The translations under genes and the position numbers were made by a program. From Sarcophilus harrisii (taxonomy: Eukaryota): a DNA stretch of 64,000 bases. Location of the stretch: positions 261,543,655 through 261,607,654 of the forward strand of contig CM109175.1 in NCBI GenBank assembly GCA_048593225.1, read 5' to 3'. The notes under the pieces are model-generated. The model was not told the origin of the DNA. It searched no databases and saw nothing but the letters and a program-made list of their open reading frames with translations. This document shows positions 18,181 through 64,000 of this stretch, piece by piece (within the stretch, counting starts at the first letter, position 1; every line of letters starts with the position of its first letter).

Positions 18181-18247
18181 AGCTTGACAACTGAGAAAAG
18201 ATTTTTAATTTAGACTTGTTGGTCAACTCTCTTGTCTTTTCTTCTAG

Positions 18248-19632: not shown

Positions 19633-21775
19633 GTAAGAGTCATCAATTCTTGATAAAATTTCAGAACTGAAAGGGAACTTGAGTCTTTTTTCATCCTCTA
19701 TTCTAAGCCTAGAAAAATGGTTCTTCTATTTTTAGAGGACTTTAAAGTAGGTACCCAGTCTTGCTTATGCTCCTTTGGGGGTTTACTCATTTATTAAATA
19801 TTTATTAAGTGTATAGTATATGTAATAATGCACTAAAATTAGAGAGTATTCAAATTTGGTCCTTTTCTTCAAGGAGTATAAACTCCTTGATAAATCTAAT
19901 AAGATATATTCTTGTATAGGCATTTATCAGTGATATTGCAAGTTCAGTTCCAGACCACTGCAACAAAGTAGATATTGCAATAATGCGAAGTTACTTGGAT
20001 TTTTTCCCCTGTGCATATAAAAGTTATATTTATACAGTAGTCTACTCTACTAAATATACAATAGTATTATGTCCTTACTTTTAAAATATTTTATTACCAA
20101 AAATATGCAAACCCTTATCTGGGCCTTCAGTGGGTCATAATCTTTTTGCTGGTAGGGTCTTGTTTCTGTATTGATGGCTAATGATTGATCAGCTGAAGGC
20201 TATGATGACTATGATGAGTGGCAGTTTCTTAAAATAAGACAACAATGAAATTTGTCACATCTATTGACTATTCTCCCTTTAACCCTCAGAGAGCATTATT
20301 GGGTTATTAATTGACTTAATTTCAAAACTGTCATGTCTCAAGCAATAGGGCAGTCCAAAGAGAGGGAGAAACAGGGAACAGTCAGTTGATGGAGATGTCA
20401 GAATATAGGCATTTATTGGGCAAGTTCCACTGTCTTACAAGGGCATGGTTTGTGGCACCTCAGAACAATATAGTTAGTAACATAAAAGATCACAGAGCAC
20501 CATAAAAATATGATAATGATGAAAAAGTTTGAAACATTGTGAGAATTACCAAAGTGTGAGAGAGACATGATGTGAACCCCTGCTGTTAGAAAAATGGTGC
20601 CTCTTGAATTTCAAGGTTACCATAGTGAAAAATGCAATATCTGTGAAACACAATAAAAGGAAGCACAATTAGACAAGTTATGACTATACAAATTTTATTT
20701 TTTATATTTCATATTCTTTATAAAATATGTATATATTATTTATATTTATATTACAGAAATGCTGATATAGGGACAGCTACGTGGCTCAGATGATTCCTAA
20801 AGTTTCTTTTACCTCTAAGATTCTATGACCAAGTCATACATTATATCAGAATGTTCTGGATTTTAAGCTCTTGTCCCACTTGATGACATACTAAGAAATA
20901 ACCCTAGCTGACCCATTTCATCTCTCATTGGCTTTTAAAATTCTCCCTTTTTCCCTTTTCTCATTTGTGCTTACCATATCTACCATAGATAATTTTGTTT
21001 CCTCTCTACCCCCTTGATTTTATTTTCTTGTTTTATTGCTATAGCTAGCATTTCTACTTCTATATCAAATAAGAGTAAAAACACTGGACATTTTTGTCTT
21101 ACCAGTAATCTTATTGTGAAATATTCTAGTATTTCTCCAATTACGTCTTAAGTAGATTTAACCATGATTATTGATAGTTTATAAACCAATTAGATAGATG
21201 GTGCCCTGAGCTTCGGTTTTAGTTCTGGTTCCAGGACAAGTGAAATAGTCAGGGGCCACCAACCCTCTCTAAAATTATGCAAGTTGATTTGGAATGACAT
21301 AGTAGTTAGGATGAATAATGTTTTTAAAATGTTAAGTAGACTAGGGAATCAGGACTCTACAAATAAACTAATCTGGGGTAAATAGAAACTAGCTACCTCT
21401 AAACACACTAATTATCACCAAATAAGGATAAACACAGGGATTAGTAGCATTGAAGGGTTGCCCTTAATGGATTCATCAGTAATTCAATCAGTAATTGTGA
21501 GTCCTTTTCTACATTCCCTCTGGGGAATCCTAAACTAGACAGGGTGATTGGTGAAATATCAGTGTTCTGTTCAAGGCCTTCCCCGGGATTTCTTCATCTT
21601 TTAGTCCAATTATCTTTTTGTTTTTGTGTTTGTTAAATGAGAAATGGAAGAATAATTTATAAGTTTCTGAACTTTAGGATCTTATAGAGGAATCAAAAGA
21701 AAGATTTCTGAGTCTTCTGGGAATGTCGTGTTTTCTAATACATTTAGTAGGTTTCTTACTCTTTCTTTTTATTAG

Positions 21776-21836
21776 ACATCTGTCCAAGAACTCCTGAAGT
21801 TTCTCAGAAGATACAGAAAAGAACACTTTGCTCTTG
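21776..21836 (+). CDS. PARP14-like protein, exon 6 (TSVQELLKFLRRYRKEHFAL)
   Basis: Acceptor ctttctttttattag|, donor CTTG|GTAAGA. 61 nt, phase 0 to 1; completes Gly codon with exon 7. Resembles PARP14 AISWLQDLIEKEQ (post-macrodomain linker). Confidence 0.55.
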
Positions 21837-22454
21837 GTAAGAATGAGAAGATACTGTCCTATTCCCTGGAATCCCTATTAGTTTTCTTTCATCTCCAGAT
21901 GTGTAAGAATTTGGGGACATTATTCCATTTGGAGATATTTGTACTACAGGTAGAAACATTCTCTTCCCAGTTACTGACAAAATGACCAGGGAGACACAAA
22001 GCAGTAACCTAAAGATAATGCAGTGTATGGTTACTAAGCATTTTCAGAGCAATGGTACACATTATCTCTTGAAGACTGCTCTGTGTCTTCTCTTAATGTT
22101 GAACTTGTCGAGGGGACCAATATGTAGGAAAAGGAGAAAGGAGAGAAGGAAGATGGCTGTTATTAGTTGGCTAAGCTATTAGTCAGCATCCAGCTAAAAG
22201 CACTTAGTACAGTGCTTTTATAAATATTATTTAATTTGATTCTAACAACAACTTTGGAAAGTAAGTACTATTACCTGCATTTTACAGTTGAGGAAACTGA
22301 GATAAAACGAGTTGTCCAGGGTGACACATTCATTAAGTATATAAAGTTGGATTTGGATTCTGACTTTTCTTACATCAGGCCCTAAACTATATCTGTTGTA
22401 TCAACAGCTACTTAAACCATTCTTCTAAACATATTAAGTATGTTAAGTAAGTAT

Positions 22455-22615
22455 CACAAATGTTTAACCTATATTGGATTACTTGCTGTCTAAGGGAAGG
22501 GGATGGGGAGGGAGAGAGAAAAATTTGGAACACAAGGTTTTGCAAGGGTGATTGTTGAAAATTATCTTTGCATGTATTTTGACAAATAAAAAGCTATTAT
22601 TAAAAAAATTAAAAT
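22455..22615 (+). mobile_element. L1 3'UTR tail fragment
   Basis: tattggattacttgctgtctaagggaaggggatggggagggagagagaaaaatttggaacacaaggttttgcaagggtgattgttgaaaattatctttgcatgtattttgacaaataaaaagctattattaaaaaaa matches the L1 3' ends at 32760..32880 and 54360..54420. Confidence 0.6.
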
Positions 22616-23211
22616 AAACCACTGAGATTGGTGAAAAGAAAGAGAAAGTAGCAGTTTCCTCTAAATTAAACCACATTTTTTTTTTTTTTTACTATAAGTT
22701 AGATGTGTAAAGTACCTTAGAGGTTATATAATTCAACTCCCTCTTCTCCAGCCTATTCCTAGGTTCCTTAAGTATGTGGAAATTTATGTATATAATGATT
22801 TTGTATATAAAAATTTATGTATGTAATAAGTTTCTGAATAAGTGGAAATTTGATCTTGCAATCTTAAAATTAAAAACAAATTTCTAATTTTGTCAACCTT
22901 CCACAGTTATATACATATATTTATATATAAACCTAAGCCCTTTGCTAGAATTCTAGTATAATTGATTATTTTCTTGGTATTAATTAAATTAGAAAATAGT
23001 TATTTCTCATTTTCTTTATGCTTCAGAAACTGAGGGCAATTTGTTCAGCCTTTTTCAGACTGAGTAATTTCAATTCTTTTGAGCTTTTCTCATACATTCT
23101 ATTATTTTAGCCTTTCATAGGCAGTATGACATCAGAATGGATCAGATTTTCCTTCATTTTCAAAAATTGAGGGTATTTGACTCATTATGAATTTCTTCTC
23201 TTTGTTTTCAG

Positions 23212-23739
23212 GTGACTCTCCACTAGGACTGGTTCAAGTATTGGGTAAGGAGATGAATTTAGTCAAATTTCAGGAAGCTTTTGAAGACTTTATGAATGGA
23301 TATTGCAGTGAAACATTTGACAGTGATAAAATAGTCACTTTCAGCCAAGACTGTCTTCAAAAGGTCTTAAGCCAAGGGTACTATTTCCCACTCAATCTGC
23401 ATCATCGTGGGAGTCTCTTACAGATCCAAGGTTTTCAGGAAGATGTGAAGAAAGCTGCTATTGTTGTACAAACTTTAATCCAGGAAGCTCATGACATAGA
23501 TAGAGCAGCAGAAGCCCTGAAATCTGTGGTTCAATGGCAATATGACATTGGTAACACAGGTCTTTCCCCATTTGATAAAACTACAAATCTAAAACTGGAA
23601 GCAGCATATAGGAAGGAAGAAGAGAACATTGAAATCATCTTGAATTCTAGAAAAGCCAAGGTCAACTTGAAGAAGAGGGAAGGTTTGGTACTAGACATGG
23701 GGACAATTTTTAAAATAAAGCGGGAAATCTGCATATGGG
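23212..23739 (+). CDS. PARP14-like protein, exon 7 (contains WWE domain)
   Basis: Acceptor tctttgttttcag|, donor TGGG|GTGAGT. ...ALKSVVQWQYDIGNTGLSPFDKTTNLKLEAAYRKEEENIEIILNSRKAKVNLKKREGLVLDMGTIFKIKRE matches PARP14 WWE (FIEWQYNDNNTSHCFNKMTNLKLEDARREKKKTVDVKINHRHYTVNL). Confidence 0.8.
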
Positions 23740-25034
23740 GTGAGTTTTTTTTTTCCTTTAATTTTCATTTCTCAATTAATCAGGTTTACTTGGCTTTGTC
23801 CCTTTCTTTAAGCTCTCATTTCTTCCCAGATTCATCCTTAATGAATAAGAATGAGAGAGGTGGTCATTCTGGAAGATATTTATCTATGTTAGAAAATTGG
23901 AAAATTAAAAGTAGTAGTTGTTAACCTTGTCCTGCACTAATTTTTCAATGGGATTCTTTAGCCAATTTCATACTTGCTTATAATGAGAAAAATATAAACA
24001 TTTGAAGTTCATTGATAATCCAAAAGGTACTTTAGTTAATTATTCTAATGTCTTATTTTATTTATACTAATACATTGTATTTGAATACTTTCCCTCAAAC
24101 ATCTAGAGAACAGCAAATCCAGAACATTCTCTGAAACTTTAAGCAAAAATGTAACTAATCACACCATAGGTTTCTACATTTGTAGTTTACCAATTGCTAA
24201 TAGAAAGACTATGCTAATAATTTTACCTTTTCCTCCCATTTAATTTTTTATCAGAATTTTTAACAAGAGATAAACACAGATATCTAATGTTTTTTTCACT
24301 TCCTCTTTACCAGTAATTAGTTAGATGGGCTAAAAAAGAAACAATTAAAAGGATTCTCTTGCCTTTAAAGAATTTAGAAATAAATGTGGACACTCAATTC
24401 AACAAACAGTAAGTGCTTACTATATACAGGGCCATAGAAAGCCACTTCCAGATAACAGACTGCTTTCCAAATTCAGATGGAATAAAACTGTTTAAAGTAA
24501 AAAGAGAAGCAGATGAATATTTTGAAGGCAAGTGTGATGATAAAGCCATTCTACATTTATTTCATTGCCTTCTTGAACACAGGAATACATAACTCCAGTA
24601 ACAAAACAATCTCTCCTTGAATTGGAAGCAAAATAGCAGCTGACCATTTCTAGATAATTCTCAATATTTAATTCAACAAATTAGGTACCTAATATGTGTA
24701 GAATGCAGTGCTGGAGGAAATGCAATTAGCATATTCAATAGGGAAATGCAATATATGCACATATATGTATACTAAAATGAACTAGTAAGAAAGATTAAGC
24801 TCTGATAATGTGGTTAGATTGCTATGGTTGCACTAGTCCAAAACACTTGAGTAATTGATGTTCTCTGTCTTCTCAGATATTAGTGATTTTAAACTATGGT
24901 AGGCAATTCATATTTCCTGAAAAGGTAACTTTTATTTCTAAACGATACCTCCTTTTTGGCTTGCTTCCTCTTTCCTGTTGAGTCCCTTCCCCCCCACCCA
25001 AACAAAACAATTTTGCCATACTTTAGTCTTGGAT

Positions 25035-25272
25035 TTGGGCAAGTAGGTGGTATGGTGGATAGAGAGCCAGAAATGAAGTCAGTAATACTCATCTTCCTAA
25101 ATTCAAACCTGACCTCAGATACTTAGTAGCTGTGTGACCCTGGGCAAGAGACCCTGTTTGCCTGAATTTCTATTCTATAAGATGAGCTGGAAAAGGAAAT
25201 GGCTCTTCAATATCTTTCCCAGGAAAACTCCAAATGGGTCACAAAGAATCAGACACACTGAACAACTGAAAA
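25035..25272 (+). mobile_element. marsupial tRNA-derived SINE (MAR1/SINE1-like)
   Basis: gtaggtggtatggtggatagagagccag...cctcagatacttagtagctgtgtgaccctgggcaag...ccaaatgggtcacaaagaatcagacacactgaacaactgaa is the characteristic MAR1/SINE1_Mdo structure. Confidence 0.6.
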
Positions 25273-26148
25273 ACAACAATGGTGTTGCATACTATTATAA
25301 GCGGTTATGAAAGTCTAATAATAAATAGTCCCTCTCTTTATCTTCCTTCTCATTTCCAGTGTCCGGGTTCAGTTCAATTAAATCAGATGTTTATTTAATA
25401 AAGGGAAAATCACTTTGTGGTCTTCTACATCTGAATATTAGATAAAATACAACAAGCAATTTCAATATTTATTGGCCAATAGTTTTTTTTTTTTAAATCA
25501 CATTTAATTTCTTAGAAGCAAAAGTGAACATTTAGAACAAAGATTAAAGTTTCCTGAATCCCTCCCTTTGTTCCTTGCTTCTCAATCTTCCAAAATAGTC
25601 TGGTAGGGATGAAGTGAATGAATAATCCACTATGCATTTGGCATCGCTGCTGGACAATGGGACAGAGAAGAAGGAAATGATATCACCATCTTTCTTCCTG
25701 GCTCACACTTGAGCAAAAGTTTGGGTTTCTCCCTTATTATCTCAGTATTACGCCTCAGAATTGTCACTACCATTCATTCTAGTTCAATCCCTGGCTGCTT
25801 GAAATAGCTCCTTCTAGCAATTGCTCCTGATGGGTCCTCTCTGGGGTCTCATGAAGACCATTCCTTTTGTATCTTCATGCTTGTAATAGCTTCCTGCTTC
25901 CTCTTCCCACTTCTTCAACCTTAAGATTAGGGTCAGTATTGGGGTAGAATTTGGGATTCTGGGTAATTAGTCCCTTAAACAAAGTCTCTTTGTCCCCAAT
26001 GGATATGGCCAAGGTTAGATTACATATGTAAATAACTACAATAAATAAAAGAACAAAAATGCAAACATAAAGTATCCCAACATAAGAAATAGGAACGCTC
26101 ACAGATTTCATTTAAGTTTCTAAAAATACTTCCAACTTTTTGTAATAG

Positions 26149-26285
26149 AGATGAGCATCCCTCAACATTGGGAACCAATGGATGATAACCCAGTGAAGAC
26201 TGTGAAACTCTCATCAAATCAGGTGGAGTACCAGAGAGTAGCCCAGAAGTTCAAGTATTCCATGAATAAGACTACCATCCTTAAG
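26149..26285 (+). CDS. PARP14-like protein, exon 8 (WWE-to-PARP linker)
   Basis: Acceptor ctttttgtaatag|, donor TTAAG|GTGAAT. EMSIPQHWEPMDDNPVKTVKLSSNQVEYQRVAQKFKYSMNKTTILK matches PARP14 [37 protein letters not shown]. Phase 1 to 0. Confidence 0.8.
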
Positions 26286-46239: not shown

Positions 46240-47130
46240 GTGTCTTGGAATTTATATAGTGGCAATGAGATTTATACAATGGCAAAACAAATCACAGAAA
46301 GATGTGTGATATACCAGAAGGTTAACAAAAAGGTCCTGAGGAAACATATAAAGGGAGGGGGGGGGGGGGGAGAAATCTCACTAAGATGCCTCCAAAGTAT
46401 TCAGCTGGATTTCACTGAAATGTCACTAATCGGAAAACTGAAACATTTTCTGGTAATTATAGATCACTTACCTGAATGGAGAGAAGCCTATCCTCTGAGC
46501 TCACTCACAGCAGCTGGGGTCAGCAAAGTCGTCCTTGATCAGATCATTCCTCAGTTTGGGTTAGTGGAAAGGATCAACTTGGACAATGGAACTCATTTTA
46601 CTACTAGAGTATTACACAATATCATGATGTGATTAGGAATTAAAAGAGAATTCCATACCCCTTGGCATGTACCTTCCTCAGGAAGAATAGAGCCAATGAA
46701 TCAAACTTTGAAACAACAGATCATTACATTAGGCATTGAAACATGGTTACCTTGGATGAAATGTTTGCCACTAAGTCAGAATGGCCCTTAGGTGGGATAT
46801 ATAGCATTATCACCCTTTGAAATGTTGTATGGAATGCTTTACCCAGGGAGGGAAGGAAAGGTTCCAACTTTCAGAGGAAGGACAGGTTTCTAAGAGGCTA
46901 TTTACTGGCAGTATCTACTTGTCTTTCACAACTTCCATTGAAAGGACTCCTTGCTCAGACTTCACCTCTTGAATTCACTATATATACATCCATTCAAACC
47001 AGGTGACTGGGTACTGATAAAAAAATCTAGGAAAGGTTACTTCTTAACTGGGATGGGCCATTCCAGATTTTGCTAACCATTGAGACTGCTAAAGGAGGTT
47101 GGACTCATTACACTAAAGTTAAGGGACCTG
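46240..47130 (+). pseudogene. ERV pol remnant: integrase (catalytic core and C-terminal domain, frameshifted)
   Basis: LDFTEMSLIGKLKHFLVIIDHLPEWREAYPLSSLTAAGVSKVVLDQIIPQFGLVERINLDNGTHFTTRVL (D,D-35-E core pattern). Downstream frameshifted ...WDGPFQILLTIETAKGGWTHYTKVK (integrase C-terminus). 19-nt G homopolymer at 46352..46370 interrupts it. Confidence 0.6.
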
Positions 47131-50310: not shown

Positions 50311-50547
50311 TGGATAACTATTTTTCAGTATAATTGTTTTTTTTTTTTTTTGATAATCCTATGCAATTTATTTTTATGAATTTAAAAATATCATTTTGAG
50401 AAGGGTTTCCATATGCTTCACTACATTGTCAAAAGGGTCTAAATCTCTAAAAGATTAAGTACCTGTTCTAAAAACAGGAAAGTACAAAAGTACAAAAAAC
50501 ACTTTTTAAGGTAAGGGAAGGGTGGGCCTTTGCCTTGGACTAACTAG

Positions 50548-50624
50548 CCAATCAGGTGCTTCCATTGCTTCTTAAAGCCATTTCCGGGCTCTCCTACCTT
50601 ATTTTTTTTTCTGCTGGTGGCCTG
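50548..50624 (+). promoter_or_regulatory. Candidate promoter/first exon of a snoRNA-host-like transcript: CCAAT box (50548..50552), ~27-nt 5'TOP-like pyrimidine tract (50590..50616), consensus donor G|GTGAGT at 50624/50625
   Basis: agCCAATcag then cTCTCCTACCTTATTTTTTTTTCTGCTGGTGGCCTG|GTGAGTAG. Lies 1.7 kb upstream of the first intronic C/D snoRNA-like element. Confidence 0.35.
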
Positions 50625-52282
50625 GTGAGTAGTTGTTAAGGGGTCTTTTCAATCCTTTTTGAACCTGGGTTTAGGGGAACCATCCACTCATGCTTTTACT
50701 TCCAGATGCTAGCTGGAAGCAAGATTAGACTTTGTGAAATTATGAGAAAGTGTTGGGGTCATATAGAACTTTAGTTTGAGAGAGGGAAAACTGAGCCAGG
50801 CCTGGGAGCTGCTTATTAGGCAGGACTGTGCTGGCGGCAACCTGGAGGCTCCTAAAGGACTGCAAGCTGCACGGAGGGTATTTATGAATAGCTACAGGCC
50901 TGGGCTTGCTGTTTTATCAAAGGTGCTGCATCTAACGAATATTGCTCGTTTGCCAGAGGGCATGCAGATTTGAGTCTGAATCGGGATTCTGACCTTGCCC
51001 GCATGGCATCTTTTCCGTTGCCATCTCCATTTATGTTGGGTGGGTGAGGAAGATAGCAGGGACTGCTTCATTTACTTAACACTTCAAAAAATATTCATTA
51101 TTTCAACCTTGGGCTTTTGCTGCTAATAAGATTTAGCTTGGATTGGGGGAGTCTGGGGCAAACAGGGTTTTATTGGACCTGGGAAAGGTGTCTTGAAAAC
51201 TTGAGTTGTGTTACAATTTAGATTGCTAGCTGCTTTGCCCCAATACTTTGGCCCTGAATGGTGTTGGGCTTGAATTTCATTTTATCCCAACCACGTTTTC
51301 TCTTTTAATCTGTGAGATTAGCAATATGTGTTGTGATTTTTATGAAAGACAGTGCCTAAGAAATATCTGAAATAAAAAATATTTGGTGAAATGAAAGAAA
51401 TAAGATGGGTTGTGGGATTCCTCTTAGCCATTCTAGATTTTCGGCCTGGACAGGTTCTTTGGATGTGTTAACTTTTCCCTTGCAGTGAAATTTCTGGTGG
51501 TTATTTTTCATAGCGGTTTTTGCCATTTTTTTGGAGGGGGGTTTGTTGCGTCCTGTGCTGACAGAAAAATTAATATGGATCTTAAAAATATCTTGGATTA
51601 CATAACGGCTTTTCTACTTCAGTCGGGCTGTAGCGACAACCCTTAAAAGTGTAGATTTTTGCCAACAGCTATTCTCTTAAATATGGGTTAGTTTATTTTG
51701 CGGTTAGTGGTTATGATGAGGTTAAGGGAGGAATGAGAATACTGGGCTTTGTGCCTTTAAGAAGAGACCACGTGGCCTCTGAATTCTCAGGCAGGTCTGC
51801 AGGCAGTAGTGTTGCCTCCTGAGATATTTATTTAAAAATTACAGTAGTGGGTAAGTAAATCTATTTTTGTAAGCATTTATTTGGGAATTAGTTGAAACTT
51901 GGAATGCTAAGAAATGTGGAAATCATTGTAAAGAGGCCTTTTAAAATGGTCGTTTTCATTTTATTAGTGCTGGTGATCTGGTTTGGTGATCTGGTGATCT
52001 CAGCAAATAGATCCCACCTGAGGTGGAGACAGAATAGATCTTACAGAAAACGTTTTTCCTTTTTAAGTTATCCACTTTTTTTTTTTTTTTTTTAACTATA
52101 ATAATCTACACAGCTCTCTGTAGGCTGTATGTTGCTTATTAGAGTGGGAAACAGACAAGTGGGAAATGCTTCTTGTGTATTACTCCTTTGTTAAAAAGTT
52201 TTTCCTAATCAAAATCTTCCAGATATACTTGATTTTAATTTTTTTCTTCAGTAAAGAAAAAACATGGTTCCTGGGAAAGTTT

Positions 52283-52355
52283 TCTGCCATGATGAGCTGC
52301 ATATTCAGTCCGTGTTTCAAATGATCACTCTGATTATACATATGCCCTGAGCAGA
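52283..52355 (+). ncRNA. C/D-box snoRNA-like element, copy 1 (possible SNORD126-type, intronic)
   Basis: 5' stem tctgc(c); C box ATGATGA (52289..52295); conserved antisense block tcagtccgtgtttcaa; D box CTGA (52347..52350); 3' stem gcaga pairing with 5' stem. Sits 93 nt upstream of acceptor ccctcctttttag| (52448). Paralogous to 57103..57177. Confidence 0.5.
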
Positions 52356-53119
52356 GACCATATTAAGATTTTGAGGGTGGGTGAGGAGGGAAGAGGAGCC
52401 ACTGATCATTTTCATTTTTAAAAAATTACTAAAACCCCCTCCTTTTTAGCTGTTTCTCATTGCCAAGTCTACATTTAAGTATCAAAGTTAAAACTTTTTG
52501 TATATCTATGGAAGAGATGAGGTGACAGCAAATCATGCTTTTCTCTGCCAAAATTAGCCAGCAGTCATTAACATATTAAATTGTAAGCCTAATTCATATG
52601 GTTCATATGACCAGTTCTGGACAGCAATCAATAACTTTGTTCTGTTTTCAAAGTTTAGGTTGAAGATGGATTTGGCTTTTGGTAGGAAGGGGGCTAAATC
52701 CTTTGCAGGGGAGGAGACATGGCTTTATGGACAAAGCTGGGAGGCAGAAGTCCAGCACCAGAAAAATCAAAACTTCCTTGTCTCAGGACCAAGTTAACCA
52801 AGGTTGAGCTTTTCAGTATGGGAAGGGCCGAAGATGACATGGTTGCTACTCTGATTTAGGTAAGTACTAGGATTTGACTAAAGTAGATGTTTATGTCCCA
52901 AATACCTTAACAGGACAATGAGTTCTTGGTCATTGTTGTTGAAAAGTTTTAACTCTGCCTCAGTTTCCTCATCTATAAAATGGGGTTAATAACAGCACCG
53001 ACCTCCTAGAGAAGTTCTGGATCAAATGAGATAGCTGTAGTGCTTAGCACAGTGTGTGGCACGTGCTATATAAAATGTTAGCTATTAACATTTCACATTA
53101 CTGACTCTTAGAACAAGTG

Positions 53120-53311
53120 CTAATCATGTCTCTCATCTTGCATGTGCAAAATTATTTTCTTACCCAGGTGTAAGACTTTACACTTATCCCTGTTGAATTT
53201 CATCTTATTAGATTCAGCCCAGTGGTCTAACCCAAGATGCTGATTCTCTTGGCACAAAGTTCTAGATTTTGTCTTTATATTTGAATGAATATGCTCTATT
53301 AAATAGAGCAT
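53120..53311 (-). mobile_element. CR1/L3-like LINE RT fragment
   Basis: Minus ORF ...LDHWAESNKMKFNRDKCKVLHLGKK matches the conserved CR1-type RT motif (L..WA..N.MKFNK.KCKVLHLG). Confidence 0.4.
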
Positions 53312-54029
53312 ATCCTATTGGAGGAGGAGACTTATCCAGCCTAGCATCTGTACCATATATTGCTATCTTCTCCACAAGAAGAATGGGAGATAACATCTCA
53401 AAAAACTTGTCTAAAGTCTATATAAATGATATCTATAGTTTTTCCTTTTCCAAAGAAGAAATAAATTTAGATTGGTTGATCAGTTTTAGATGAACCCTTG
53501 CTGGCTATTTGTAACCACCATTTCCCTTTCCAGATGGTTACCAGACATTTGTTCTTAAATCTGTCAATCATGTAAACGCTGTCTTAAGGTAGATATAAAA
53601 TAAAAAGTTTATATATACATACACAGATTTAGATGTATATAAATATAAGGTAGATAAAAAAAAAAATTTAAAAAGAGGCACAAGCCAGTCCCTATTCTCA
53701 GGGAAATTCTAATGAATAGTTCAGTCTAGAATTTAAGTTCCATGTTCATTGCCTTTTATATTGCAGGCAATAGTTTCTTTTTTGAAAATCAGAACGTATG
53801 CTCTCCAATCTCGTTACCTTTTTTTTTTTTCATAATCTTTCAGCTATCTAATGGAGGCTCAGCTATAGCATATGGTAGCAGGGCTTTCCCATCTATTCAA
53901 ACTATTTTTTATTTCCATTTATATGTGTGCCCTCCAGTTGGATATAGACTGCACTCCTGTAATTATTACAGGGAGACCAAGCTCAGAAGTTTTGAGCTGC
54001 ATTGCGGCTAAAGTCAATGAAATACCCAT

Positions 54030-54430
54030 ATTAGGTTCAGAACTAGTATGATGTATACAGCAACAAGATTATATGATGATCATTTCTGATGGATATGACT
54101 TTCATCAAAAACGAGATGATTCAGGCCAGTTCCAATGATCTTATAATGAAGAGAGCCATCTGCACCCAGAGAGGACTGTGGGAACTAAGAGTAGATTACA
54201 ATATAGCACTTTCACTCTTTGTTGTGGTTTGCTTGAATTTTCTTTTTCTTTTTTTTTTTTTTTTAACTTTATCCGATTTTTCTTGTGCAGCAAGATAATT
54301 GCATAAATATGTATACCTATATTGGATTTAACATATATTTTTACCATGTTTAACATATATTGGATTACATGTCATCTGGGGAGGGGTGGGAGGGAAGGGG
54401 GGGAAATTTGAACACAAGATTTTTTTTTTT
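54030..54430 (+). mobile_element. L1 3' end (ORF2 extreme C-terminus plus 3'UTR)
   Basis: tacagcaacaagattatatgatgatcatttctgatggatatgactttcatcaaaaacgagatgattcaggccagttccaatgatcttataatgaagagagccatctgcacccagagag...ggattacatgtcatctggggaggggtgggagggaaggggg is the characteristic L1 3'UTR. Confidence 0.6.
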
Positions 54431-54439
54431 AATAACTTT

Positions 54440-54730
54440 TTTATCGATGGAACCCATGCCAGGGTAATTTATTACAACATTATCCTTTGCACTCACTTCT
54501 GTTCCGATTTTTTCCCTCCCTCCCTCCACCCCCTCCCCCAGATGGCAAGCAGTCCTATACATGTTAAATAGGTTACAGTATATCTTTAGATACAGTATAT
54601 GTGTGCAAAACCGAACAGTTCTCTTGTTGCTCAGGGAGAATTGGATTTAGAAGGTATAAATAACCCGGGAAGAAAAACAAAAATGCAAGCAGTTTACATT
54701 CATTTCCTAGTGTTCTTTCTTTGGGTGTAG
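54440..54730 (-). mobile_element. L1 3'-end family fragment (reverse orientation)
   Basis: ggaacccatgccagggtaatttattacaacattatcctttgc...ccctcccccagatggcaagcagtcctatacatgttaaata...gtatat resembles the shared unit at 376..843. Confidence 0.45.
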
Positions 54731-55142
54731 CTTCTTCTAGAACACAAGGTTTTTCAAGGGTCAGTGTTGAAAAATTATCCTTGCATATGTTTTGAAAGTA
54801 AAAAAAAAACTTGAATAAAAAACAAAAAGAGCTAGTATGATGATGAGTTACTGAGAATGGGCATCACCAGGCTAACTATTGTGCTGTGAATTAGTATAGG
54901 TCAGAAATCAGTGTATCTGAGATCTCTTCCCTTCTCCAAATGGGATCCGGACTACTCCATAGTTGCAGCTTTGCTGAGATAAATTTATAACTGTACACAT
55001 ACTTTTAGAGTGGGACTTCTTTCCCTCAGGATTTTTGTCATCTTGAGAAATTTTTATGCGACCCTGGGTATGTAGGTATATATAAAAAAGATACATAAAT
55101 GAAACATTTGCTGATAATAGATCATCAAGAAATCTATTAATT

Positions 55143-55275
55143 ATTATTTTTTGCTGAAGCAATTGGGGTAATTGACTTGCCCAGGGTCACAGCTGGGAAG
55201 TGTTAAGTGTCTGAGACCAGATTTGAACTTAGATCCTCCTCATTCTAAGGCTGGTACACCATCCACTGCACCATC
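55143..55275 (-). mobile_element. MAR1-type SINE fragment (reverse)
   Basis: gcttgcccagggtcacagctgggaagtgttaagtgtctgagaccagatttgaacttagatcctcctcattctaaggctggtacaccatccactgcaccatcttgctacc is the reverse complement of the MAR1 body. Confidence 0.55.
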
Positions 55276-56210
55276 TTGCTACCCCAAGAAATTTATTTTA
55301 AAACAATTTACTGCTAACATATAATTTTGTCTTTTATTAAAGATGATAGCAAATTTATATAATAATGATATGGATATACTTGCTTTTTACATAATGAATT
55401 AAGTTGGAGGAATATGGATGCCTTTGACTGTTGCAAAGTTTTTTACAACCTCATATGGGGTCACAAACCAAAGTTTTGTTTTAGGGTACCTACTTGAGGA
55501 CCATTTTCATTTTTAGTATTCAACAGAATGTTAAGTTGGATTAGTTACTTATGTTCATTATCTCCCACAGAATATAGGGACAATGGATTTAATAAAATTA
55601 TTATCTGATATGTGAAGATAACAAAGTTGAAAATTAATTTCCATATAAATTTCAACAATCATATCTTTATTTTTCCTTCAATTTAATACATCTTCTAAAG
55701 GGAAGAAAGTTGGCTGTCCAGTCTGTGTTTCACGTGATTTAATTTAATGTCACACATGACCAGGGGAGATCCCTGTGTTGTAGGATAAGAAAACCTTGCA
55801 TGTTGCCATCTTGTGGCATAATTAATAGCTGCATGGCCTTCTCATTTTCTCTACATAAAGGGAAAATTTTCAGTTTATAGAAAGATGCATTGTGACATAG
55901 TAGGCATTTAATAAATGCTCATTGATGGATTGATATAGCATCTTGGGTATGACTGATAGCAGGATTTGGTTAAGCAAAACTGCAACTATTGTATTTTACT
56001 GAAAAAAATGGTTCCTTGCTCTTAGTCTTTTGGGTATGTATATCAGTATTTCAAAATATGCTGTCTTTTGCTCAGGGTTATTAATTTTTAGGTTACCTTA
56101 TATTTGACTCTTACATCAGTCTTTAGTATTGAATATTCATGGCCAGTAAATCAGTATTGAACATTAAATAAGCTTAAAAAGCTTGTCAAAAAAAATGGTT
56201 GAAGTTTCTT

Positions 56211-56682
56211 TTTTATTTATTTATTTTTTATTTAATAGCCTTTTATTTACAGGATATATGCATGGGTAACTTTACAGCATTAACAATTGCCAAACCTCTT
56301 GTTTCAATTTTTTACCTCTTACCCCCCCACCCCCTCCCCTAGATGGCAGGATGATCAGTAGATGTTAAATATATTAAAATATAAATTAGATACACAATAA
56401 GTATACATGAACAAACCGTTATTTTGCTGTACAAAAAGAATCAGACTCTGAAATATTGTACAATTAGCTTGTGAAGGAAATCAAAAATGCAGGTGTGCAT
56501 AAATATAGGGATTGGGAATTCAATGTAATGGTTTTTAGTCATCTCCCAGAGTTCTTTCTCTGGGCGTAGCTGGTTCAGTTCATTACTGTTCCATTGGAAA
56601 TGATTTGGTTGATCTCATTGCTGAGGATGGCCAGGTCCATCAGAACTGGTCATCATATAGTATTGTTGTTGAAGTATATAAT
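56211..56682 (-). mobile_element. 5'-truncated L1 3' end with 17-bp TSD (atggttgaagtttcttt)
   Basis: Poly-T, then the shared L1 3'UTR unit. Identical atggttgaagtttcttt at 56194..56210 and 56684..56700. Confidence 0.75.
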
Positions 56683-56800
56683 GATGGTTGAAGTTTCTTT
56701 GAAACGATTTTTATGATTTAAATGAGAGCATGGTGTAGTACAATTAAATAATATAAAAACATCTGAATAATATCATTTCCATATATTTGGTGTCATTTCC

Positions 56801-56870
56801 TAGATTGTTGAGAGAGCTATCCAGTTTTAACGTGCATGACTGCAAGGCAGAAGCTGTACTTGGTATCAGA
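56801..56870 (+). other. Candidate non-coding exon of snoRNA-host-like transcript
   Basis: Acceptor tcatttcctag|ATTGTTG and donor ATCAGAG|GTGAGTT. The C/D snoRNA-like copy 2 lies in the following intron. Confidence 0.35.
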
Positions 56871-57102
56871 GGTGAGTTAAAAAAAAAATGTTTCTGCCTT
56901 CTATTTGTACAGAAGGGAGCACTCAGTATAACGGACTATATTTTGGAGGGGAAGTATTCTTTCACATTTTTCGGTCTTCTATCTTAGAGCTTTATACACT
57001 TTATAAATCCGGAAGCATAAAAAGCACTTCTGAAGCTCAAGGACTTATTCCCAGTTCAGGGAATACCACTAAAAAAGTAATCATAGTTACCTATCACACA
57101 CA

Positions 57103-57177
57103 GTCTGCCATGATGAAATGCATTTTCAGTCCGTGTTTCAACTGATTACCCTGATTGCATGCATACTCTGAGCAGAC
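57103..57177 (+). ncRNA. C/D-box snoRNA-like element, copy 2 (possible SNORD126-type, intronic)
   Basis: 6-bp terminal stem gtctgc/gcagac; C box ATGATGA (57110..57116); antisense block tcagtccgtgtttcaa immediately followed by D' box CTGA (57142..57145); D box CTGA (57168..57171). Sits 93 nt upstream of acceptor ccttattttag| (57270). Confidence 0.55.
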
Positions 57178-60100
57178 TAGAGCCAGAAGTGAACATTTGT
57201 TCCTGGACTTTTGGGTCTAGTTACTAGGCTATACCAATTTCTAACTTTTGTGTTTATAATACCTTATTTTAGATTTGACTGGTAACAACTTCCTTTCTAA
57301 AAGGGAACATTTGCCTCTTAAAAATTAATGACATTTTGAAGTGTTTGTTTTTAAATTTGCAGTATTCTGATAATTGGAAGGAATAAGTGAATGAATGAAA
57401 AAGCATTGGCAACCACTGCTAAGTGCTGGGGAAACATATGACTTTGACAAATATCAATAATCATGTTCATATTTGTATGATTATGAGAAACTGAATCTTA
57501 GAAAATTTTTAAAAATTTAATGTGTTATTTCATTGATACTTTTTATAAAAAATGGAATACCACTTACTTGTAACATGTATCATCCAGAAAAACAAATCCA
57601 TGTTTCTCATGTAAATCTGTATTATCTCTGCAAAAGGTGTATTCTTTTGGAGACTCCAGTTACCATTTTATTAATATTTTCTGATAGATCAAAAAAACCC
57701 CTTGAGGAAGGTGCAGTTGACTAATTTACCTCATTTGTATTTTTTGGGGGAAATTAAGGTGGGATGCTATGTGAAGTTAGTCTCACACATTATAAGAAAA
57801 TGGAGGATCACATTATTAACTTTTGGATAGTAATTTTTTGTAGTTTTTGGCCTTTTTTTGCAGAGATTGAAGCTGTAGTCAAATTCACTTTGTTCACCTG
57901 GATTGGTTAGTGATGGAAGCCATGATTTAAAATCCTACCAACAGTGACTTAGTTTCTCTTTATGGTAAGATTTTTGTTCACATTTAAAGAAAAACTATTA
58001 ATTGGATGTTTTATTCTTATAAGCTTAAAATGGATAGATCCAAGAAGTTGGGTGATACTAGATCTCAGATACCCCTCATTTGCAACTGTGCCTAATTCTT
58101 GATGTGTTACATATTGACGCTATTTTGGATGACATGGGAGGATTTTTCTGTCCAGAAAATGATGATCACAAAAACTTTGTTGCCAATCATTAGTAAAGGA
58201 CTTCGTAGCCCCTACACAAACTATAATTTTAAGTTTTGAAATGGACTGTCACTGAAGTTTAGGGTTTATATATATGTGACAAGATTTCAAGTGTGAATGG
58301 ACAACCACTAACTTAGCAGAGTGATTGCGTGCTGGAAATTATGTTGATATCGTGGGAAGAATAACAGTTGTGTGATTCTCAAGGAGCTAATTTGCAATCA
58401 AATATAATAAAAGGTTTGGACTGCTACTCAGAGGCATATACTCTTGTATATGTGACTTTTATTATATTTTGCAGTATAATCTTATTTATTTTAGTTTACC
58501 ATTAGAAGTTTGGCTATGAGGACAAATGCATGGTAATAGAATATGTGTAATAATATAAGCAATAAAATTATATTTGGCCTTGAAGGCATAATTCAGAGGG
58601 GATGTTACTGTTAAGACAATGAAGTTGGAAATTGGAGATTTCAGTGTTGGAAATCTTCAGTGGGATGTTATACTGGACTGGTATTGAATCTACACGTTGT
58701 ATTATTACACGTTGTTGATGGTAATTTCTCAGTTTTATGCTCTAGCCACAAAAACATTTTGTAATGATTTTGGACTTTTGATTTATGAGAGAATTATTAA
58801 AATTTAACTATTGATTATTTTGGGGGAGGAGAGAGGGCTCATTATTGATGGCCTCAAATGGCAACTGATATTTTTAATAAATGTATAATCTATGCTCGTT
58901 GTGTACAGAGGATAATTTTGTCAATTTGCCTAGTGTGGCTAGAAAATGTGGTAAACCCTTGGAGCTTTGAAAGCATTTTTTTTTTTCCAAAGTTTTAAAA
59001 ATTTTCCATTTTTTGAAAGACATTTAAAAATACAAAGCATACACTAAAGGTAAGTTCCTATAGAAATGGACAAATAATAAATCAATTTAAAATGGTTTGT
59101 TTGGGAATCAGGGTTGGGAGACCAGGAGTGGGTCAGAACAAAAAGTACAAAAGTAATTTTGGGGGGAATAGTTCTAAATTGTTTTTCAGATAAAGTGGAT
59201 CAATTTACAATTCTATCAACACTGCATTAGATAAATGTGCCATTCAGGAGGTGTGAATTGGAATCTCATGCTTTGGCTTTTCTCTAATAGTGATTTGGAG
59301 CATTTTTAAAATATGGCTCTTGATAGCTTGTTTTTTCTCCTTGAAAATTTTCAGTTTATATCCTTTGATCATTTTAAAAATTTTGATATATTTTTATAAT
59401 TCAGTGTATTAAGAAAAGCTAGTTTTGTTGAAATCCAGATGGCTGTTCCTCTCATTGCTTTGAGTTTTGGCAGTGGGATTTTAGGCCATCACAGAGTAAA
59501 TCTGGTCTTTCTTCACTCAGGGCACCATTGGATGGGTTGGCCATCTGTTAGTGCTTTCTGAATTTTGCGGGGCCAGACATTTTATAAGGTTAACCTGATC
59601 TAAAAACATGCTCTTGCTTATAAATGAGATAGTTGATCTTTTAAAAGGTTGATTTAAATTCTGAGGAGAAAGGAAAGATCTAGATTGAATTGGAACTAAT
59701 GGTGAGAACAATTATGGTAAACTTTGAGCTATGCACTTGAATTTAATCATTTGAAAGATTGCTTTTTGACTTTGAAATTTTTTTTCCTTTTCAGAAAGAA
59801 GATAGATTTTTACCTCTCCAAGAATACTGACGTTCTCCAGCAGAACTAATAAGTACCAAAAATGTTTGAATCTTCTTGCACAAAACCTGATAAAATTCCT
59901 TAATATTTGCCCTTGTTATCTCTGTAAATTAACAGCCAAGTAAAAATAAATAGTATTTGAATAAATGTTGAACATTTTTCTGTATTATATTTTTAAATGG
60001 AACAAGTGTACCTAAAACTTACATTTTATAACCTGGAACTTGATGAATTCATTACAATAACATTTGAGCAGAAGAATGGATAGAATTAAATTCCTGTAAC

Positions 60101-61159: not shown

Positions 61160-61550
61160 TAGTTTTATTTATATATATATTAATATTAATAATAATATTA
61201 GTATATTAATATATTAATGTTATTAATATATATTATATATCAATGTATATAATATATATAATTATTATATATAATAACATAATGTATATTATAATATATA
61301 ATATATATAATATATTAACATATATAATATATTATAACATACAATATATAATAATATATTAATATATATTAATATAATATTATTAATACATTAATATTAA
61401 TGTTAATAATATATATTATTTATTCTATTTATTTATATATTCTATTTGTTATATTTATTTACATATTATATTTATTATATATATAATATATATTATATAT
61501 ACATATTATATTTATAATGTATTATATATTATATTTACATATTATATGAC
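61160..61550. repeat. AT-rich low-complexity/microsatellite-like block ((TA)n, (ATATTA)n, (TTATA)n variants)
   Basis: Direct observation; ~390 bp almost exclusively A/T. Confidence 0.85.
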
Positions 61551-62069
61551 TTTCTAGTTTTATAATCTGCAAGGTCCCTTTCCAGATGTAAAATCACTGT
61601 GTTGGGATGACTTCCTGTACAACAACTTTCAATGAACTATATGAATAAGTATATAAACTTGTCACTAACATCGGTCACGTACAAAAAAGGACATGACAAT
61701 CTTGTCAGAATTGGGTATGCGCAACGGGTTGCTTAAAACAAAAATCAAGGCAGTATATTAAACGCCAAATGAGGGCTTCAGGATGTCAGTATAACGTATC
61801 TGTTAAACTACCCGAGACAAAAAAGTCTGCCCAGGTTAAGGTAATGCCACGGAAAAAAACATTTATGGAGCTATTTTAAGACGCAAAAATAAAAGTCCCT
61901 GCCCTCGTTAGGGTGATTTCACTTATATAAATAAGATTTGAAATAAAAGTCTGGTTAGTATTTGGGCAAAAGGTACGAGAGGATTACAGAAAAGGAATGA
62001 GTAGAAATAAGGGGGATTGTGTTCTTCTGCTAAGTTAAGTTTCAGTGAGCAAAAGATAGCCTTGGGGAA

Positions 62070-62690
62070 ATGATTTCACGGAAGTGAATTTACAGCGCGT
62101 GCGCAGTTACAAAACTCGTCGGCGCGAGGATAGCCGGCCGCATGCGCAGTTTGGCAGGTGGGGGAGGGGAGGACAAGAGAAAGCGACTCTGGTGGCGGCT
62201 GAGGCGCTCTCGGGCTTTCCTTTTCTGGCGGGCTCAAGTAAAGTTTTCCCTTTTTGGTGGTTCGAAGTTGCCTGAATTCAAAACCTTCCCAACCACACTC
62301 AAACCCCAGCCCCTTCATGGGCTTCAGTATCCCGCGAAGCCCAGGAAATCACTCCTCTTCCAAGCGGAAGGTCTCGGGGAAGCCCCTCACCCTTCCCTCC
62401 CCGCCCCCACTCCCCCAGGAGGCCTTGCGAGCTTTTTACCTCAGGCCCTCCACCCTCACTTAAGCGGTCTCCTAGTCCCGGGCTCTTGTGGGCTTTTCGT
62501 AAAAGCTGACGAGGATTCTAGTTCTAGAGCTGGAAGCAACCTCTGCGGCCTTCTAATTCATTCAGAAGGGACTGGAGAGCCCCCCAGTCTTATACCTAAC
62601 CCCTTCCGGATCTTTCCGGTAGTCTTCATAAAAGGTGGATTCGATGCCCTCTCGCCCTTCTACTCTACCATGTTTTGTGAATTGAATTGA
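62070..62690 (+). promoter_or_regulatory. CCNB1IP1: CpG island / TATA-less promoter region upstream of CCNB1IP1 coding exon
   Basis: Sharp rise in GC and CpG density (cgcgtgcgcag...cgtcggcgcgagg...agccggccgcatgcgcag) in an otherwise CpG-depleted window. The 182-aa + ORF here is Pro/Gly/Arg-rich with no domain, probably non-coding. Confidence 0.55.
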
Positions 62691-63828
62691 AAATTGAGCC
62701 GCCTGCTTACAGGACCCTGTCAGTAGGACATGTTCCTGTAGCTCCCATAGGACTCTGTTAGATGGTGAGGTCTCTTGCAGGGCGCAAGACACGCCTGTTT
62801 GCCACTGGAAACCAAACATGATTTTTGGCAACGTTTATGAGTTTCTATCAAAAAATGCAATCACTTTATTTCAGTCTGTGATTGCAACTAGAGATGGGAA
62901 TGGGAATGGGGTGCCTTGTCTAATTTGGATTGCCATATAAAAACTAAGAACTAGGTGTAAGACTCGTGGGGTAAAATATTCAACCCTGTCAGTCAAAAAC
63001 CAGTAACTCTGCTTTCAATTCTACTGAATATCTGTGTGGTCTCTGTATTTATGTGTGTCTCCTGGATAAAGCTTAGTTTCTTCATGATAGTTTGCTATAT
63101 GGAGAAGGGGAGAGAACAAGCACTTATTAAAAGCAAGCTAAGTGCCTGACACTTCAAAATTTGTCACAGCAACCCAGAAGTAGGTGCTGTTATTGCTTTC
63201 ATTTTAGAATGAGGAAACGGAGGCAGAAGATAAGTAAGTGACCAAGTAACTGTCAGAGGCAGGAGATGAACTCGGGTCTTCCAATTGTGTCATCCAGCCA
63301 CTCAATAAAGAGAGAAAATGCTGGATTTGCTGTCAGAGTACCTGGGTTGGAGTTCCACATTTGCTACTTTCTACTTGTGTGGCCTTGGACAAATTCTTTA
63401 ACCTGTCTGGGACTTAGTTTCCTTATTTAAAAAATTGGGTATTAATGAAAATTAGATAGTTCCTAAGATTCTAAATCTATTTTTCTATTTTCACTGGCCA
63501 GCAAAAATGGAAGCTGAGGTCTTTTAATCCAATATTTTATAGATAAAGAGACTGTAAAAGAGACATTAAAAAATACATGTCTAATTAGTGACAAAACCCA
63601 ATCTTTCATCTTTTAGTTTAATGTGCTTTTCATTTTAAAACTTGGTTAAGGATCTGTCTGTCGACAGAGGAAACTCGATGTTGACTGTTCCAAAAGTGCC
63701 AAGTGGGCTTGTTAGTCTGATTTATTCTTCCATTTTCCTGAGTAAAGTTTAACTGCATATTTTATTTGATTCCTCCTTAGAATTTCCTTCAGCATTTTGG
63801 AGCCTGAAAGAATTGTTACTACTGAAAT

Positions 63829-64000
63829 ATGTCTATATGTGAAGACATGTTGCTCTGTAATTATCGAAAGTGTCGAATCAGGCTCTCTGGCTATGCATGG
63901 GTAACTGCTTGCTCACACATCTTCTGTGACCAGCATGGCAGTGGTGAGTTCAGTCGGTCTCCAGCTGTCTGCCCTGCCTGCAACAGTACCCTTTCTGGTA
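63829..64000 (+). CDS. CCNB1IP1: CCNB1IP1 (HEI10) E3 ubiquitin ligase, first coding exon (N-terminal RING); exon begins at acceptor 63781, CDS continues beyond window or splices at 63997|GT
   Basis: MSICEDMLLCNYRKCRIRLSGYAWVTACSHIFCDQHGSGEFSRSPAVCPACNSTLSG versus human HEI10 MSLCEDMLLCNYRKCRIKLSGYAWVTACSHIFCDQHGSGEFSRSPAICPACNSTLSGK (~95% identity). Acceptor tttgattcctccttag| at 63780. Confidence 0.85.
   Translation, partial: MSICEDMLLCNYRKCRIRLSGYAWVTACSHIFCDQHGSGEFSRSPAVCPACNSTLSG

Follow-up and report, generated by a model that had tools for sequence, protein, structure and literature searches.

Results

A cluster of three snoRNA genes upstream of CCNB1IP1

The window, i.e. the whole 64,000-nucleotide stretch of Sarcophilus harrisii DNA that was analysed, carries three snoRNA genes on its forward strand. 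Two are box C/D snoRNAs of the SNORD126 family, at 52281-52357 (copy 1) and 57102-57178 (copy 2), and the third, at 59437-59582, is the box H/ACA snoRNA SNORA79. We searched with Infernal and the Rfam model of SNORD126 (RF01168, curated gathering score of 55 bits), and found 85.8 bits for copy 1 (E = 1.7e-17) and 97.2 bits for copy 2 (E = 1.2e-20), both alignments covering model positions 1-77 of 77. The match of SNORA79 to its own model (RF00600, gathering score of 55) is also full length, with 125.5 bits. The original prediction had described two paralogous C/D-box snoRNA-like elements and suggested an Infernal search with Rfam models; this search returned full-length SNORD126 matches of ~77 nt on the forward strand for both. 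A degenerate 32-nt pattern running from the C box to the guide has exactly two matches in the window and none in 100 shuffles. Judged by their sequence, both elements are genuine SNORD126 copies. Rfam models gave no further snoRNAs beyond these three in 44-64 kb at a relaxed threshold. A purine-rich inverted repeat accounts for weak matches to miRNA models at 54.36-54.55 kb, which were discarded.

The cluster precedes the first coding exon of CCNB1IP1 (HEI10), which spans 63781-63943 on the same strand, with its ATG at 63829, an acceptor AG at 63779-63780 and a donor GT at 63944. The translation of this exon, MSICEDMLLCNYRKCRIRLSGYAWVTACSHIFCDQHGSGEFSRSPAVCPACNSTLSG, is 77-95% identical to proteins named CCNB1IP1 by their sources (four matches in a protein search). 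The ATG exon lies 11.5 kb downstream of copy 1 and 6.7 kb downstream of copy 2. The only clear CpG island, at 62000-62750, lies between the last of the three snoRNAs and the ATG exon, 1.1-1.8 kb before the latter, and is probably the proximal CCNB1IP1 promoter. It holds 16, 10 and 7 CpG per 250 bp, against 0-2 elsewhere, with a GC content of 0.48-0.58. It lies 9.7 kb downstream of copy 1 and 4.9 kb downstream of copy 2, in agreement with the 5-10 kb given at the outset. Human SNORD126 is intronic to CCNB1IP1 (PMC1636440, PMC8148486), as the original prediction had stated.

Boxes, guide and predicted rRNA target

Both copies have the features that define box C/D snoRNAs, all of them anticipated: a 7-bp terminal stem (52281-52287 with 52351-52357 in copy 1, 57102-57108 with 57172-57178 in copy 2), a C box AUGAUGA (ATGATGA at 52289-52295 and 57110-57116) and a D box CUGA (CTGA at 52347-52350 and 57168-57171). 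Internal boxes are also present in both copies and, as is usual for them, degenerate. Copy 1 has a C' box UGAUUA (TGATTA, 52331-52336) and a variant, non-consensus D' box AUGA (ATGA, 52321-52324); copy 2 has a C' box UGAUUG (TGATTG, 57152-57157) and a D' box CUGA (CTGA, 57142-57145). The 13-nt guide GUCCGUGUUUCAA is identical in the two copies (GTCCGTGTTTCAA at 52308-52320 in copy 1; 57129-57141 in copy 2). It belongs to a conserved block that had been given as 16 nt long; the block is indeed common to both copies, but its length is 17 nt, TTCAGTCCGTGTTTCAA. In copy 2 it directly abuts the D' box CTGA, as had been noted, the equivalent in copy 1 being ATGA.

The guide GUCCGUGUUUCAA and the 28S segment UUGAAACACGGAC form a 13-bp duplex of ~ -22 kcal/mol, the segment being a conserved large-subunit sequence taken as a stand-in for the species' own rRNA. 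In both copies the fifth nucleotide upstream of D' is a U that faces the second A of GAAAC in this segment, and this A is A1323 (A1310), the position expected for a SNORD126 guide. The reverse complement of the segment, CCGTGTTTCAAGACGGG, is the LR3 primer, and this string appears in print in many sequencing papers.

The C and D boxes and the terminal stem would fold into a kink-turn, and the folded snoRNA would assemble with SNU13, NOP56, NOP58 and fibrillarin. The guide GUCCGUGUUUCAA, which immediately precedes the D' box, would base-pair with 5'-UUGAAACACGGAC-3' of the 28S rRNA, and the second A of GAAAC, i.e. human Am1323 (Am1310 in the older numbering), would receive a 2'-O-methyl group from fibrillarin. 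Accumulation as a ~77-nt nucleolar RNA with fibrillarin, NOP56 and NOP58, and a requirement for Am1323, are what we take to be the hallmarks of SNORD126. The literature assigns 28S Am1323 to SNORD126 (PMC9941101, PMC11550049), and a further paper gives it as a SNORD126 site that is conditionally methylated (PMC9226514). The site of SNORD18 is an A 3 nt away (PMC11550049), in keeping with GA[A]AC[A]C.

Candidate introns around the snoRNAs

We scored the 732 GTs and 839 AGs of 50-64 kb with a crude Shapiro-Senapathy-style weight matrix. Even the acceptor that the coding sequence implies for the CCNB1IP1 ATG exon ranks only 68 of 839, and the matrix is therefore used to rank candidates roughly and decides nothing. 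For copy 1 the candidate host intron is 51851-52449 on the forward strand, with a donor G/GTAAGT at 51851 (rank 15 of 732) and an AG at 52448-52449 (rank 14 of 839) preceded by a 50-nt AG-free zone and by ACTAA at 52428-52432. For copy 2 it is 56872-57272, also on the forward strand, with a branch-like CTAAC at 57241-57245. Its donor, AG/GTGAGT at 56872, is the best of the 732 GTs and lies 230 nt upstream of the snoRNA, and its AG at 57271-57272 is weak (rank 170 of 839). The original prediction's description of the acceptors as strong was an overstatement. SNORA79 is itself flanked by a candidate donor at 59050 (rank 2 of 732, 387 nt upstream) and a candidate acceptor AG at 59793.

The spacing of the two copies to their acceptors had been described as identical, exactly 93 nt. 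Between the 3' end of the snoRNA and the base that follows the candidate AG we count 92 nt in copy 1 and 94 nt in copy 2, and the distance to the candidate branch-like motif is ~75 nt and ~66 nt, respectively. The position of vertebrate intronic box C/D snoRNAs is given as ~70-90 nt from the 3' splice site. PMC5519232 gives it as a preference for ~50 nt upstream of the branch point. The strong candidate donors, the AG-free zones and the branch-like motifs make an intronic placement of both copies plausible, with intron boundaries that are predicted from these signals.

Differences between the two copies

The copies lie 4.8 kb apart on the same strand, in different candidate introns, and are identical at 60 of 77 positions. 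The C box, D box, guide and core stem, 34 positions in all, contain none of the 17 differences (hypergeometric P = 8.6e-6), and the two outer stem pairs are changed in a compensatory manner, from U-A and U-G to A-U and G-C. At positions 16-17, for example, copy 1 reads GC and copy 2 reads AA. From C' to D, conservation is poor, whether the copies are compared with each other or with the Rfam consensus. Outside the snoRNAs the resemblance ends: the 100-nt flanks are 27% identical, which is the random level, and in a blastn comparison of 4 kb around each copy 52283-52355 aligns with 57104-57176, i.e. the snoRNA bodies only. This speaks against a segmental duplication including exons and upholds the initial view of duplicated snoRNAs in unrelated flanks. 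The same comparison returned a few opposite-strand matches of the kind expected from interspersed repeats. Since the differences spare boxes, guide and core stem while the flanks are unrelated, both copies appear to be maintained. They would form an old intragenic duplicate pair in which both members were retained under selection, the second copy being a minor, probably lineage-specific paralogue.

One might instead consider copy 2 alone as the functional SNORD126 orthologue and copy 1 as a decaying pseudogene that is no longer assembled or no longer guides methylation. Copy 1 has indeed the lower score (85.8 against 97.2 bits) and a D' box AUGA rather than CUGA. Yet, degenerate D' boxes are common among functional snoRNAs, according to general statements in the literature (PMC11028025, PMC8148486), and copy 1 retains an intact C box, D box, 13-nt guide and core stem. 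Its outer stem changes are compensated, its key positions have stayed free of differences while the flanks were randomised, and it has the better candidate acceptor of the two. We thus regard decay of copy 1 as unlikely.

Retroposition of mature snoRNAs would also leave a similarity limited to the snoRNA body, and the elements might then be copies dropped at random outside functional introns, or else chance or repeat-derived look-alikes. We give this very little credence. The E-values range from 1e-17 to 1e-20, and the shuffles never produced the motif. Both copies are in sense orientation, less than 5 kb apart, and their host region is that of the human gene. A high-ranking donor is found 230-430 nt 5' of each, and an AG with an AG-free zone ~92-94 nt 3' of each, and neither a poly-A tail nor a target-site duplication is visible at the copy ends. 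Two maintained SNORD126 copies remain the reading that we favour.

The host transcript

Each copy would be processed out of an intron after splicing of a host transcript that starts upstream of 51.85 kb. The original prediction had offered CCNB1IP1 or a separate host gene, and the candidates remain either long 5'-UTR isoforms of CCNB1IP1 or a separate non-coding gene. A speculative upstream promoter and first exon can be placed at 50540-50630 on the forward strand, where a CCAAT box (GCCAATCAG) and a pyrimidine tract CTCTCCTACCTTATTTTTTTTTCT are followed by a donor GT at 50625 that scores 7.3, tied third of 732 by our crude matrix. A weak local CpG excess is found at 50.75-51.75 kb. The combination of a CCAAT box, a start in a pyrimidine tract and a strong donor downstream recalls TOP-type host-gene promoters, and the sole strong CpG island lies 3' of the whole cluster and close to the ATG exon. 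Both observations speak for a separate and probably non-coding host gene, starting at ~50.6-51.8 kb and ending before the CCNB1IP1 CpG-island promoter at 62 kb. This is at odds with the description of the human snoRNA as intronic to CCNB1IP1 (PMC1636440, PMC8148486), and nothing here points to a transcript end between 59.8 and 62 kb. Besides, with an acceptor of its own at 63779, the ATG exon could be joined by splicing to upstream exons from either promoter. We consider a separate host gene a serious contender whose chance is somewhat below even. The two kinds of hosting are not mutually exclusive.

Discussion

We find at this locus a pair of SNORD126 genes accompanied by SNORA79, in sense orientation in the 5' region of CCNB1IP1. 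The membership in the covariance-model family, the boxes, the stem, the complementarity of the guide and the non-random distribution of the differences between copies are plain features of the sequence. They are best explained if the pair encodes intronic guides for 28S A1323, both kept by selection, and we hold this to be highly probable. Expression of the two copies, their processing from introns and the actual methylation of the rRNA would follow the scheme proposed above.

The resemblance to human SNORD126 is close. It extends to the full-length model match above the gathering score, the boxes, the length of 77 nt, and the register of guide and D' box, as well as to the neighbourhood, with CCNB1IP1 on the same strand and SNORA79 alongside. 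The differences are as follows: the papers on human SNORD126 cited here describe one gene, whereas there are two copies here; copy 1 has a D' box AUGA; the C'-D region is poorly conserved; and all snoRNAs are upstream of the only CpG island. In having the same guide in separate introns of one host gene, with the snoRNA body alone conserved, the pair also resembles multi-copy paralogues such as SNORD18A/B/C. It differs from them in nothing of principle, with host exons that are here predicted. In the eel Conger conger, the 10 kb preceding the first coding exon of CCNB1IP1 gave a match to neither SNORD126 nor SNORA79, even at E <= 1. This one locus is a weak hint that the cluster may be absent from the place upstream of CCNB1IP1 in teleosts. 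Metagenome contigs, scanned for contaminating host DNA with a degenerate C box-to-guide pattern, gave one match. It was set aside as due to chance, since no Rfam model recognises it and the architecture of a snoRNA is missing.

The relation to SNORD18 (U18, RF00093) is of another kind. Human U18 is hosted by RPL4. Common to both families are the guide core GUCCGUGUUU, directed at the same 28S helix, and the placement of the guide on the 5' (D') side; their lengths are also similar. The SNORD18 model aligns end to end with both copies, at 37.3 bits for copy 2 and 29.2 bits for copy 1, below its gathering score of 41. The two copies differ from SNORD18 by 3 extra nt between the core and D' (AAC in the alignment; CAA if counted as the 3' end of the guide), which shift the methylation site by 3 positions in the 5' direction, from Am1326 to Am1323. 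SNORD18 guides 28S Am1326 (Am1313) (PMC11550049). One might speculate that SNORD126 is a register-shifted descendant of a U18/SNORD18-type guide, in which the insertion of 3 nt between GUCCGUGUUU and D' shifted the target from A1326 to A1323, giving rise to a 28S methylation site that is new and variably used. The guide would then have been duplicated again in the present lineage, and copy 1, whose D' box is AUGA, may now differ in efficiency or regulation. We put this forward as a tentative scenario, and rather doubt it.

The SNORD126 family, its rRNA target and its association with CCNB1IP1 as host were already known and, the extra copy aside, the locus is ordinary. The main value of these results is a clean annotation, with three snoRNA genes identified, two copies of SNORD126 and one SNORA79. 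They also suggest that, as in human, snoRNAs are hosted by the 5' region of CCNB1IP1 in this genome, with a host transcript that is itself predicted. Two further points would not surprise a specialist. The 3-nt offset relative to SNORD18 illustrates how a new methylation site may arise from an existing guide. And the presence of two guide copies could be used to probe the relation between guide dosage and methylation stoichiometry: since Am1323 is described as conditionally methylated (PMC9226514), a genome with two copies could serve as a small natural dosage experiment.

Three snoRNA genes in the window

An Rfam scan of the whole window at gathering thresholds returned three matches in total, all on the + strand and each end to end on its model. 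Two are SNORD126 (RF01168) box C/D elements: copy 1 at 52281-52357 (85.8 bits, E = 1.7e-17) and copy 2 at 57102-57178 (97.2 bits, E = 1.2e-20). The original prediction described two snoRNA-like elements and proposed Infernal with the SNORD126 model as its own test; both copies pass it, well beyond the curated threshold of 55 bits, which is also that of SNORA79. The pair is real, and both copies belong to SNORD126 by covariance score, boxes, stem and guide register. The third match is the H/ACA snoRNA SNORA79 (RF00600; 59437-59582, 125.5 bits, full-length). It lies 2.3 kb 3' of copy 2 and had not been predicted. A relaxed Rfam scan of 44-64 kb gave no further snoRNAs beyond these three.

The predicted coordinates and motifs proved correct on re-reading the + strand. 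The C box ATGATGA is at 52289-52295 in copy 1 and 57110-57116 in copy 2, the D box CTGA at 52347-52350 and 57168-57171, and the 7-bp terminal stem pairs 52281-87 with 52351-57 and 57102-08 with 57172-78. The conserved block is indeed identical in both copies, but its length is 17 nt (TTCAGTCCGTGTTTCAA) and not 16 nt. It is directly followed by ATGA in copy 1 (52321-52324) and by CTGA in copy 2 (57142-57145). A 32-nt degenerate pattern running from the C box to the guide has two matches in the window, and 100 shuffles gave none.

Guide, target and relation to SNORD18

The guide, GUCCGUGUUUCAA in both copies, comprises the 13 nt that immediately precede D' and forms a perfect duplex with 5'-UUGAAACACGGAC-3', which we take to be a conserved segment of the large-subunit rRNA and the target side of the duplex. 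The reverse complement of this segment, CCGTGTTTCAAGACGGG, presumably the LR3 primer, appears in 199 papers. The U at the fifth nucleotide upstream of D' faces the second A of GAAAC in the presumed segment, and the A lying 3 nt further 3' is that of CAC. SNORD126 has been assigned to the methylated A of 28S rRNA Am1323, Am1310 in older numbering (PMC9941101; PMC11550049), which is conditionally methylated according to PMC9226514, and SNORD18 has its site, Am1326, 3 nt 3' of it (PMC11550049). Since Am1326 thus falls on the A of CAC, the guide register agrees with the published assignments. Following the canonical box C/D mechanism (summarised in PMC10557570 and PMC8148486), we infer that each copy would assemble through its kink-turn with SNU13, NOP56, NOP58 and fibrillarin, and would then direct methylation of the rRNA nucleotide paired 5 nt upstream of D'. 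Conservation is poor in the segment that precedes the D box, both between copies and relative to the Rfam consensus, and we therefore propose no second target.

The SNORD18 model also aligns end to end with copy 2 (57105-57175, +, 37.3 bits) and copy 1 (52284-52354, +, 29.2 bits). Both scores are below its gathering score of 41 bits, and we rejected SNORD18 membership. Relative to SNORD18, both copies carry a 3-nt insertion between the common guide core and D', which reads AAC as aligned, or CAA if it is taken to be the three 3'-terminal nucleotides of the guide. Its size is the distance from Am1326 to Am1323. To judge from these alignments, SNORD126 may have descended from a SNORD18-like guide by a register shift, an origin not raised in the checked literature naming both.

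Host transcript and neighbourhood

SNORD126 was first listed as an orphan snoRNA with CCNB1IP1 as host (PMC1636440), in line with the host named in the original prediction. Here, the exon with the CCNB1IP1 start codon (ATG at 63829, +) spans 63781-63943, and its translation, MSICEDMLLCNYRKCRIRLSG..., matches proteins named CCNB1IP1 by their source. Since an acceptor opens this exon, there must be non-coding exons further upstream. All three snoRNAs lie upstream of the sole clear CpG island (~62.0-62.7 kb), as had been stated for the SNORD126 elements. About 0.5 kb upstream of this island, a (TA)n-like block of low complexity is extremely rich in AT (61170-61540, GC down to 0.04).

We ranked the 732 GTs and 839 AGs of 50-64 kb with a crude splice-site weight matrix. 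Candidate donors precede copy 1 by 430 nt (51851, G|GTAAGT, rank 15), copy 2 by 230 nt (56872, AG|GTGAGT, rank 1) and SNORA79 by 387 nt (59050, rank 2); SNORA79 is followed by a candidate acceptor AG at 59793. The candidate acceptor AG of copy 1 (52448) ranks 14 and follows a 50-nt AG-free zone, and that of copy 2 (57271) ranks only 170, although a CTAAC motif and a 43-nt stretch free of AG precede it. Both elements had been placed exactly 93 nt before a 3' splice site. This is slightly overstated: the first base past the AG lies 92 nt from the snoRNA 3' end in copy 1 and 94 nt in copy 2. Candidate branch sites lie ~75 and ~66 nt downstream of copies 1 and 2. In human, box C/D snoRNAs reportedly favour a location ~50 nt ahead of the branch point (PMC5519232). 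Given these distances and spacings, the predicted intron geometry is plausible but not striking.

The snoRNAs may be carried either by a long 5'-UTR isoform of CCNB1IP1, which is what human annotation implies, or by a non-coding host distinct from it. A candidate upstream promoter and first exon (50540-50630, +) combines a CCAAT box (GCCAATCAG), a long pyrimidine tract (CTCTCCTACCTTATTTTTTTTTCT) and a donor-like GT at 50625, tied third best of the 732. More speculatively, it might be a TOP-type promoter and first exon of the snoRNA host transcript. At ~51769-51774 there is an E-box, CACGTG, and at 50.75-51.75 kb a weak CpG excess.

Upstream of the snoRNA region, on the same strand, is a PARP14-like gene (18232-28000, +), with a large exon weakly matching PARP14 KH domains (18232-19653), a PARP14-type WWE domain (23187-23924, E = 2.8e-8) and PARP catalytic fragments (27045-27365 and 27689-27976). 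The gene list for sheep, by contrast, places PARP2 and RPPH1 beside CCNB1IP1 (PMC8355708); RPPH1 was not detected by the whole-window Rfam scan at gathering thresholds. In the eel, neither SNORD126 nor SNORA79 occurs within 10 kb upstream of ccnb1ip1. A metagenome scan for a SNORD126-like pattern gave one match only, which we read as chance. The GC content of the window is very low (~0.35, range ~0.31-0.40), and CpG is extremely depleted outside the single island (observed/expected ~0.1, ~0.05-0.15). Taken with the gene order, this composition points to a mammal outside the eutherians, possibly a marsupial. An intergenic ORF (46240-46632, +) matches the retroviral integrase core domain (rve, E = 3.7e-7), narrowly missing the Pfam cut-off, and is probably what remains of an endogenous retrovirus or LTR element. 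Between the two copies lies a purine-rich/pyrimidine-rich inverted repeat (54342-54575; 65-nt arms, 74% complementary, 104 nt apart), probably a low-complexity hairpin or a repeat. Several miRNA precursor models, from plants as well as animals, match it weakly, with scores that all fall far short of threshold.

Duplication and probable constraint

The copies are identical at 60 of 77 positions. As predicted, their flanks are unrelated: with 4 kb around each copy, blastn aligns the snoRNA bodies alone (52283-52355 with 57104-57176), apart from a few opposite-strand matches that resemble interspersed repeats, and the 100-nt flanks are 27% identical, the random level. The 34 positions that make up the C and D boxes, the 13-nt guide and the five inner pairs of the stem are free of all 17 differences (hypergeometric P = 8.6e-6). 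In each of the two outer stem pairs both partners have changed, yet pairing is kept: copy 1 has U-A and U-G, copy 2 has A-U and G-C. We read this avoidance of functional positions and this compensation as evidence for snoRNA-type constraint on both copies ever since they separated. Hence copy 1, despite its non-consensus D' box, does not look like a decaying pseudogene. Earlier work has already described the SNORD126 family together with its rRNA target and host association, and we regard the second copy as an ordinary intragenic paralogue.
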